IMG/VR virus record: IMGVR_UViG_3300010430_000007 | Span: 32,001 to 96,000 of that record | Reading direction: 5' to 3' (one strand) | Source: a virus | DNA: 64,000 nt | In this document: one piece after another, positions 43,363 to 44,474 of the stretch | Numbering within the stretch: position 1 is the first letter of the stretch | Layout of the letters: each line of letters begins with the position of its first letter | Notes under the pieces: generated by a model | Database searches by the model: none | Told to the model about the DNA's origin: nothing | Seen by the model: the letters and a program-made list of their open reading frames with translations, nothing else | Program-made: the position numbers and the translations under genes

Positions 43363-43423
43363 TAAAATAGGTGATAATGAATACATCTGAATGAAAATTC
43401 TTGTTACCAATTCGATATGCAAA

Positions 43424-43439
43424 TGTTTCACGTGAAACA
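43424..43439. promoter_or_regulatory. parS centromere-like site
   Basis: TGTTTCACGTGAAACA, an exact match to the Firmicute consensus TGTTNCACGTGAAACA; palindrome extends over 43422-43441. Confidence 0.9.
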
Positions 43440-44474
43440 TTAATCAGTATCAATATGAGACTAATATATCAATTAATTCAAATATATCTATATATCACAC
43501 AAAATGTCACACAATCCACCAGATTCTCACAGATTCTAGTAGATATTAGCAGATAATAATAGAATGGATTATGCAGTGAATATAGTTGTATGTATTGGTA
43601 TAGCTTGATTGTAGGCTATTATAGTGTGATTGTATGTACTGTGTATAATATAGTATTATCTACAGTAGTATTATGGTACAAATAGTGGGTAAATGGCTGA
43701 GAGTGAGTGACAGCAATGGTTAGAAGGGTAGGGGTACTTTTCAAATATAGATAGTTGTCTATTTGTGGAAATTTCAATGAGTAGTTCCACCTCTACACCT
43801 TAACTAAATCCAACTACGGTATCGGTATATTTACACTTAAATCTCAATTTATTCTATTTTCAACACTTATCACACACTCAACACTTAATCTGAGTTGATT
43901 TCAACTCACTTTTTCTATTCTCATGTACACAATTGTCCACTATCGTCCTATCATGTCCATTTCAACATACTCACAGGTTAGTCACTCAACTAACTAACCT
44001 CATTTATATCATTTTTCATCGATTAAACATGTACTCACACAACTTTATTTTCTACCCTACTCATACTACCTTCAACAACATATATCCTCTCTAACCCTTT
44101 GTATAATCACAGAATTAACTCACAGAATTCATCTACACCTACATCATTCCCAACTCACCTAACCCATATCAACTTTTCATCATATTTAACATTTTTATAT
44201 AAAACGACACTGTGATAATATAAAGAGGGGTTACTTTCAAATCTAACCACCCTTCCTATATCCATACACAACCATATACTTACGTATAACAAAACTTAAT
44301 TTCTCACCATACCATTATACCTAATCAACACTATCTCTTCTCTAACATGCTATTCCATCGACGTAATTAACCGTAGAATTGATTTTACACGCTACTACAA
44401 TCCCACAAACATTTCACCTGTTTCCTTTATAATAGAACACAGACAATCTTCATGAAACTATTTTCAAATATCTC

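Follow-up and report, generated by a model that had tools for sequence, protein, structure and literature searches.

A single host-type parS site coupled to a DnaA-box array in the presumed packaging and control region of an SPbeta-like phage from marine sediment

Introduction

The plasmid prophage P1 carries oriR with DnaA boxes together with parABS. Like the Clostridium botulinum phage c-st with its TubZRC system (PMC6009700), it unites functions for replication with those for partition in a prophage that is not integrated, and both phages encode their own partition proteins and centromere. The virulent Bacillus phages phi29 and Nf carry the parS of the host chromosome and have no ParB of their own, and Spo0J of the host acts on their DNA; phi29 has five such sites, and Spo0J helps to move its genome into the prespore (PMC2731898). 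A chromosomal par operon in combination with a single parS stabilizes otherwise unstable plasmids, one 16-bp site being sufficient for the ParAB-dependent positioning and inheritance of an extrachromosomal replicon (PMC7022226). Finally, a centromere site next to initiator-binding sites is found on chromosome II of Vibrio cholerae, where spreading of ParB from parS2-B modulates both initiation and transcription at the origin (PMC3688505).

The locus described here lies in a window of 64,000 nucleotides, which corresponds to bases 32001–96000 of a 133,911-bp IMG/VR virus record (G+C about 30%); coordinates are those of the window unless the genome or another record is named. As in phi29 and Nf, a parS of the host chromosomal type is present on a phage without its own ParB. 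However, this phage has only one perfect site where phi29 has five, and the site is coupled to an array of seven DnaA boxes in the presumed pac/control region of a 134-kb SPbeta-like genome of the siphovirus type. The stabilized plasmids exemplify the mechanism that we propose for the phage, but they are laboratory constructs, whereas this is a natural phage genome for which an episomal state is hypothetical. Chromosome II of V. cholerae has its own ParB2 and RctB with different site sequences, whereas here both proteins would be those of the host, and in contrast to P1 and c-st the SPbeta-like phage is devoid of partition proteins.

Results

Identity of the phage

By its YonO-type RNA polymerase, which also anchors the synteny comparisons made below, the phage is SPbeta-like. 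The two marker genes are as follows.

46873–49455, plus strand: YonO-type single-chain RNA polymerase, 45–51% identical to YonO of SPbeta-like Bacillus phages and of Clostridium phage D-1873
56151–57938, plus strand: large terminase subunit, YonF homologue (tblastn E = 5e-34), in the same rightward block, downstream of YonO

Relatives of this YonO are found mostly in Bacillota (Bacillus, Paenibacillus and Clostridia). D-1873, which is linked to the phage in our analysis by the YonO match only, is presumably a close relative of the plasmid prophage c-st. The ends of the record share a 123-bp terminal repeat that resembles an assembly overlap. Since contigs from four metagenome runs on marine sediment (all low-depth) agree fully over the stretch containing parS and the DnaA boxes, an assembly chimera can be excluded.

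A profile search of the whole genome did not reveal a serine recombinase, the class to which the SPbeta integrase belongs, and homologues of YopR, AimR, YonR and YonP were not detected in the phage genome. The lack of an SPbeta-type integrase and of YopR, AimR and YonR is compatible with a non-integrated state of the phage. Two tyrosine-recombinase-like genes are present in the genome, one being a 292-aa frame. The other encodes a 340-aa integrase-family protein (genome 107602–108624; L144 835–1857) whose counterpart, 53–54% identical, is conserved in phi3T, SPR, BUCT082 and Geobacillus virus E3 (141 kb). Assignment of the 340-aa protein as a YopR-type repressor was rejected (BLASTP against SPbeta YopR, E = 1.2), as was its assignment as YopP.

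A perfect parS of the host type occurs once in the genome

The original prediction held that a 20-bp perfect palindrome represents the Firmicute-type Spo0J/ParB site and that it lies about 60 bp from a cluster of DnaA boxes. The palindrome is as follows.

43422–43441, no strand assigned: 20-bp perfect palindrome AATGTTTCACGTGAAACATT, with a core that is by its sequence a chromosomal-type parS, the loading site of ParB/Spo0J

The core at 43424–43439 matches TGTTTCACGTGAAACA at 16 of 16 positions, and the parS consensus of B. subtilis is TGTTNCACGTGAAACA (PMC7022226, Table 1). Both properties that define parS by sequence, the match to TGTTNCACGTGAAACA and dyad symmetry, are displayed by the 16-nt core within the 20-bp palindrome. 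Moreover, in three bacterial genomes that contain YonO-type prophages the chromosomal parS is exactly the same 16-mer. No second site with two or fewer mismatches exists in 133,911 bp, giving a genome-wide parS count of one, and parS-like sites with three or four mismatches are as frequent as in shuffled sequences. From base composition, the 16-mer would be expected in 4.6e-5 copies per genome and the 20-mer in 6e-7, and 43422–43441 is the sole 20-bp perfect palindrome of the whole genome. The predicted identity of the site is thus borne out by a complete core match that is unique in the genome, and it is very likely that the palindrome is a functional site for host ParB. A role as a terminator or hairpin was considered and rejected, since the palindrome is not followed by a run of T residues.

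parS adjoins a DnaA-box array in a gene-free region

The site is located in the largest ORF-free stretch of the genome, the features of which are listed below.

42487–44534, no strand assigned: gene-free region of 2,048 bp, the longest in the genome when ORFs of at least 80 aa are counted; presumed region of control and packaging start
42498–42515, plus strand: hairpin resembling a terminator, closing off the upstream gene (ORF 42052–42486)
42600–43400, plus strand: C-poor arm, 1–4% C (10% in the bin 43100–43199), with many ATAGATA-type repeats, ending in the DnaA boxes
43264–43362, minus strand: array of seven co-oriented DnaA boxes (consensus TTATCCACA), five perfect and two with one mismatch, in 99 bp
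43264, 43285, 43320, 43332 and 43354 (starts), minus strand: perfect DnaA boxes, TTATCCACA
43273 and 43304 (starts), minus strand: DnaA boxes with one mismatch to TTATCCACA
43800–44500, plus strand: G-poor arm, 2–9% G
44475–44503, plus strand: best match to a sigma-A-type promoter (TTGACA, 17 nt, TG-n-TAGTAT), ahead of ORF 44535–44816; a consensus match only

The last DnaA box and the parS core are separated by 61 nt, in good agreement with the predicted distance, and only one further perfect DnaA box is found elsewhere in the genome. When both elements are placed at random in 15–24 kb of ORF-free DNA, the chance of a spacing below 100 bp is about 0.01. No match to Rfam families was obtained between 41.8 and 44.9 kb, and annotation of the flanking ORFs with Pfam and PHROGs gave no replication, partition or packaging function. 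Promoter-like matches in the gene-free region are no commoner than in shuffles. The YonO late block follows downstream of the ORF-free stretch (42487–44534). In SPbeta, yonR and yonP are separated by a gap that contains the pac site, at which the genome is opened (bioRxiv 10.1101/2021.11.22.469490; PMC8270828), and on the basis of synteny with this gap the module is presumed to adjoin the packaging start.

No other 200-bp windows of the genome are as skewed as those in the C-poor arm (about 800 bp) and the G-poor arm (about 700 bp). A similar G-poor arm is located upstream of yonP/yonO in SPbeta and other relatives, and a milder switch from G-rich to C-rich is observed at the syntenic gene-free place in SPbeta and other relatives (L124 7860–8748; L002 2832–3971; L004 2611–3420). 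In addition, palindromes of the ATAGAC...GTCTAT type and direct and inverted repeats flank the DnaA-box/parS core on both sides (42531–42556, 42585–42600, 42876–42907, 43123–43139 and 43741–43766); the ATAGAC...GTCTAT repeats are candidate binding sites for a phage protein, for example the small terminase or a repressor.

The minimum of the cumulative GC skew is found near 33–34 kb, where gene direction flips, and not at 43.4 kb. Compared with a bacterial oriC, the locus has the cluster of DnaA boxes but no linked dnaA or dnaN, and no Bac_DnaA gene is present.

The phage encodes no partition or initiator proteins of the families searched

Profile searches of the whole genome detected neither ParB_N nor HTH_ParB, no ParA-type ATPase (AAA_31, CbiA), no Tubulin/TubZ, no StbA/ParM and no Bac_DnaA. 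The negative results with ParB_N are meaningful because the positive control, a ParB-like protein on the D-1873 phage contig, was detected by the same search. The absence of parA and parB, previously noted for the window, therefore extends to the entire 133,911-bp genome, including the remainder in which a phage ParB had been suggested as something to look for (ParB_N, HTH_ParB). A type I ParABS cassette, with its own parA and parB beside the centromere, is accordingly lacking genome-wide. Spo0A boxes (TGTCGAA) number 9 in the genome against 14.5 expected, with none in 42487–44534. Of the elements of the phi29 strategy, the phage has the host parS without its own ParB but not the multiple sites and Spo0A boxes.

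Conservation among SPbeta-like relatives

Searches with YonO in viral, genome and metagenome collections yielded distant relatives throughout, with identities of 52% or less. At the syntenic position, parS is absent in SPbeta, D-1873 and about 20 other YonO-bearing loci; among these relatives neither parS nor a DnaA-box cluster is found near YonO, and parS is missing altogether from the whole SPbeta genome, from the D-1873 contig and from a complete provirus of 158 kb. Lack of conservation in relatives had been named at the outset as an observation that would speak against a functional site, and formally this is what we observe, although the test is a weak one given the distance of the relatives (YonO identity of 52% or less).

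A parS-like site in L135 has two mismatches and lies inside a coding ORF, and was rejected as probably due to chance. A Paenibacillus SPbeta-like element, with a YonO 51% identical to that of the phage, has a host-type parS of its own, TGTTTCACGTGGAACA (L184 7781–7796; G025:C11:142780–142795), and TGTTTCACGTGGAACA is also present at G027:C1:68934–68949. The Paenibacillus parS lies about 10.7 kb upstream of YonO, in the short gap between a TATAAT sequence and the RBS of a small gene, a placement resembling that of an operator. There are no DnaA boxes near this TGTTTCACGTGGAACA site.

The box–parS arrangement recurs in other phages

Two composite scans of IMG/VR, for a DnaA box followed after 0–30 or 40–70 nt by parS, identified 38 further contigs, 17 of which have at least three perfect DnaA boxes within 200 nt of parS. 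By sequence these 17 fall into six lineages, so that, the SPbeta-like phage aside, the arrangement is found in at least six other IMG/VR lineages: a 16-contig group (represented by 12 members among the 17) and the singletons L150, L156, L159, L164 and L177. Outside the motifs the six lineages have no sequence in common. Neither ParB_N nor Bac_DnaA was found in any of the 23 records of the first scan, and none of 16 composite-scan records tested has a tyrosine integrase.

Judged on L151, the 16-contig group has a T4-type terminase, an SU10-type portal and a lysozyme, and DNA polymerase A is encoded in two records. We aligned seven members of this DNA-polymerase-A lineage (L147, L148, L151, L155, L158, L160 and L168; 43–48% G+C). 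The alignment shows a core of about 170 bp in which six to eight DnaA boxes surround one parS. The parS is invariant, as are four of the boxes, and two boxes have a single change in one member, whereas the flanks cannot be aligned. At the level of this alignment, a conserved module between diverged flanks directly indicates that the module is under selection in the 16-contig lineage. Some members of the lineage have additional GTGAAACA half-sites just upstream. The module lies next to terminase genes in this lineage (L151) and in L164. The terminase of L164 is of the T7 type and 75% identical to that of Lauvirus, and the Lau218 records examined do not contain the module. The hosts of Lauvirus are SUP05 bacteria, which do not sporulate.

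A group of P22-like phages of 38 kb, recognized by portal and coat genes, has two boxes per contig and for this reason stands outside the six lineages. In the complete members (L157 3156–3236; L161, L163 and L165), two DnaA boxes, TTGACA-17-TAAATT and parS follow each other in a row that ends 45 nt before the start codon of the gene preceding the coat gene, so that a promoter-like site is bracketed by two sites for host proteins. Boxes and parS were also observed close to contig ends in L156 (parS at 156), L158 (245), L162 (160 from the end) and L180 (78 from the end), and in L170, L174, L178 and L179 the module is 370–470 nt from the end of the locus, taken as the contig end. Together with the terminase genes beside the module, as in L164, these positions hint that box–parS modules may be associated with physical genome ends or the packaging start.

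Among 401 bacterial genomes from the phylum of a Clostridium with a YonO prophage, just one has a parS with a DnaA box no more than 70 nt away, for the orientation covered by the search. A captured host oriC, or a plain copy of oriC, was rejected on the grounds of this rarity. A 921-nt contig from the same sediment sample (run X1, record 2) matches 43316–43339 and 43421–43439 of the window; its DnaA-box-like stretch and parS are about 630 nt apart, and it derives from another organism or element. Its source could be the origin region of the host or another phage in which the module is present.

Carriage of parS is common beyond these modules. The perfect 16-mer is present in more than 119 IMG/VR contigs (a lower bound), and none of 50 tested IMG/VR records with it has ParB_N. 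Among small parS-bearing contigs (8–28 kb), 18 of the 23 tested encode a protein-primed polymerase of the phi29 type and several have inverted terminal repeats; from these sequences, carriage of host parS of the phi29 kind looks widespread. In BLAST searches, the 30 nt around the site had matches in 496 GenBank phage records, including C. perfringens phages of about 18 kb. In C. perfringens phages of the phi29 size class (phiCP7R, phiZP2, CPS2 and CPQ1), up to 13 BLAST places were observed per GenBank record; parS is not mentioned in the paper on phiCP7R and phiZP2 (PMC3362512). The IMG/VR contigs L006–L084 (taxon 3300045988) have one to four perfect parS sites each, and the phi29-type polymerase was confirmed for IMG/VR contigs only.

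Discussion

We propose that parS and the adjacent DnaA-box array constitute an 'origin-mimic' cis module in the main non-coding control region, which would operate without a phage protein and through which host chromosome-handling proteins are probably loaded onto the phage DNA. After entry, or while the genome is unintegrated, host ParB-CTP clamps would load at the single site and confer the identity of a host origin region on the phage DNA. The ParA/Soj–ParB machinery of the host, and probably SMC as well, would then position and segregate this DNA with the chromosome origins. As the likeliest benefit, the phage genome would be retained and inherited as an episome in a carrier state, and it would also be captured in the forespore if the host sporulates. 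In view of the tight spacing and the convergent recurrence, it seems likely that parS and the DnaA boxes act together as one module.

As to the outcome, we tentatively favour positioning or inheritance of unintegrated phage DNA, by analogy with the entrapment of phi29 or with parS-stabilized plasmids. This outcome fits a phage with no partition system and no SPbeta-type integrase that comes from a sediment habitat, and marine sediments are dominated by endospores and slow growth, spore formers being common there. Weighing against inheritance are the single site, the lack of Spo0A boxes and the absence of the site from relatives. The module is also present in apparently lytic lineages, including a T7-like phage, and this distribution fits a general role in docking or takeover equally well. 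Given the canonical parS, its coupling to the boxes, the recurrence and the lack of phage par genes, the original prediction of a mini chromosome-origin module that recruits host proteins is a fair description of the locus; a strict phi29-type reading is disfavoured by the single site, by the lack of Spo0A boxes and by the presence of the module in apparently lytic phages whose hosts probably do not sporulate.

The same two host proteins could instead act locally, ParB at parS (either spreading or stopped by DnaA on one flank) and DnaA serving as repressors or roadblocks that couple late transcription, access to pac or replication to the replication state of the host, with no role in segregation. 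A module that precedes the YonO late block, at a place corresponding by synteny to the SPbeta pac site, would suit such a regulator, as would the alignment of boxes, TTGACA-17-TAAATT and parS directly before the scaffold and coat genes of the P22-like phages, the Paenibacillus parS between TATAAT and RBS, and the terminase genes adjoining the module in the 16-contig lineage (L151) and L164. Moreover, in V. cholerae chromosome II, ParB spreading into the origin silences transcription and tunes initiation (PMC3688505). However, the first 1 kb or so downstream of the phage parS contains neither a gene nor a convincing promoter, promoter-like matches being at the level of shuffles. We also know of no instance in which ParB reports the state of the cell, and we consider a purely local regulator unlikely. 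Still less do we expect a true DnaA-dependent origin of the phage or an episome, at which parS would serve SMC loading (sister resolution) or the control of DnaA by Soj/ParB. Seven co-oriented consensus boxes in 99 bp of an AT-rich gene-free stretch, the lack of a phage DnaA and the recurrent pairing with parS would be in keeping with an origin, and prophages of the plasmid type, P1 among them, rely on DnaA boxes at their plasmid origin. On the other hand, the GC-skew minimum near 33–34 kb is distant from 43.4 kb, the same module is present in T7-like and DNA-polymerase-A phages that have their own replication systems, and a juxtaposition seen in one of 401 bacterial genomes is not that of a plain host oriC copy.

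Multiplying phage DNA might also soak up host DnaA and ParB, thereby stopping host initiation and disturbing segregation or sporulation in the course of host takeover. Clusters of DnaA boxes on multicopy plasmids perturb initiation in B. subtilis, high-affinity consensus sites need no phage protein, and the module is present in apparently lytic phages without integrases. Titration, however, does not need adjacency, yet the sites are 0–60 nt apart in independent lineages, and a single parS per genome would be a weak sink; a decoy function appears quite improbable. That the palindrome arose by chance, or is a passively captured scrap of host DNA without function, would agree with its absence from all available relatives. 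This is extremely improbable considering the expectation of 4.6e-5 per genome, a base composition that matches the phage and the lack of gene remnants; furthermore, other phages acquired this architecture convergently, and in one lineage it has been conserved.

Returning to the origin-mimic module, its occurrence on the SPbeta-like phage appears to be one instance of a recurrent phage module. A broader proposal, about which we are rather doubtful, is that the module is a convergent, protein-free device used by many unrelated phage families, typically at the packaging-start or genome-end region. The families concerned may comprise SPbeta-like, T7-like and P22-like phages and podophages of the DNA-polymerase-A kind; contigs encoding a phi29-type polymerase would have a weaker form with one box. 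In each, the phage DNA may enter the origin network of the host (DnaA, ParB-CTP clamps, ParA/Soj and SMC) for persistence or positioning.

To our knowledge, borrowing of a host centromere protein has been documented only for phi29 and its relatives, and we found no description of DnaA-box arrays coupled to parS in phages in the literature searched. Piggy-backing on host proteins by way of parS is therefore known, and what appears to be new, as read from the genome, is the combination of one perfect site with a DnaA-box array on an SPbeta-like phage, in a presumed packaging and control region. The module comprises about 180 bp and is fully defined, which makes it easily testable. If the proposal is true, many phages would be carried through cell division, starvation or sporulation by the host origin machinery with no protein of their own, which would be of direct relevance to marine sediments with their endospores and slow growth and would represent a general, so far undescribed strategy for the persistence or positioning of phage genomes.
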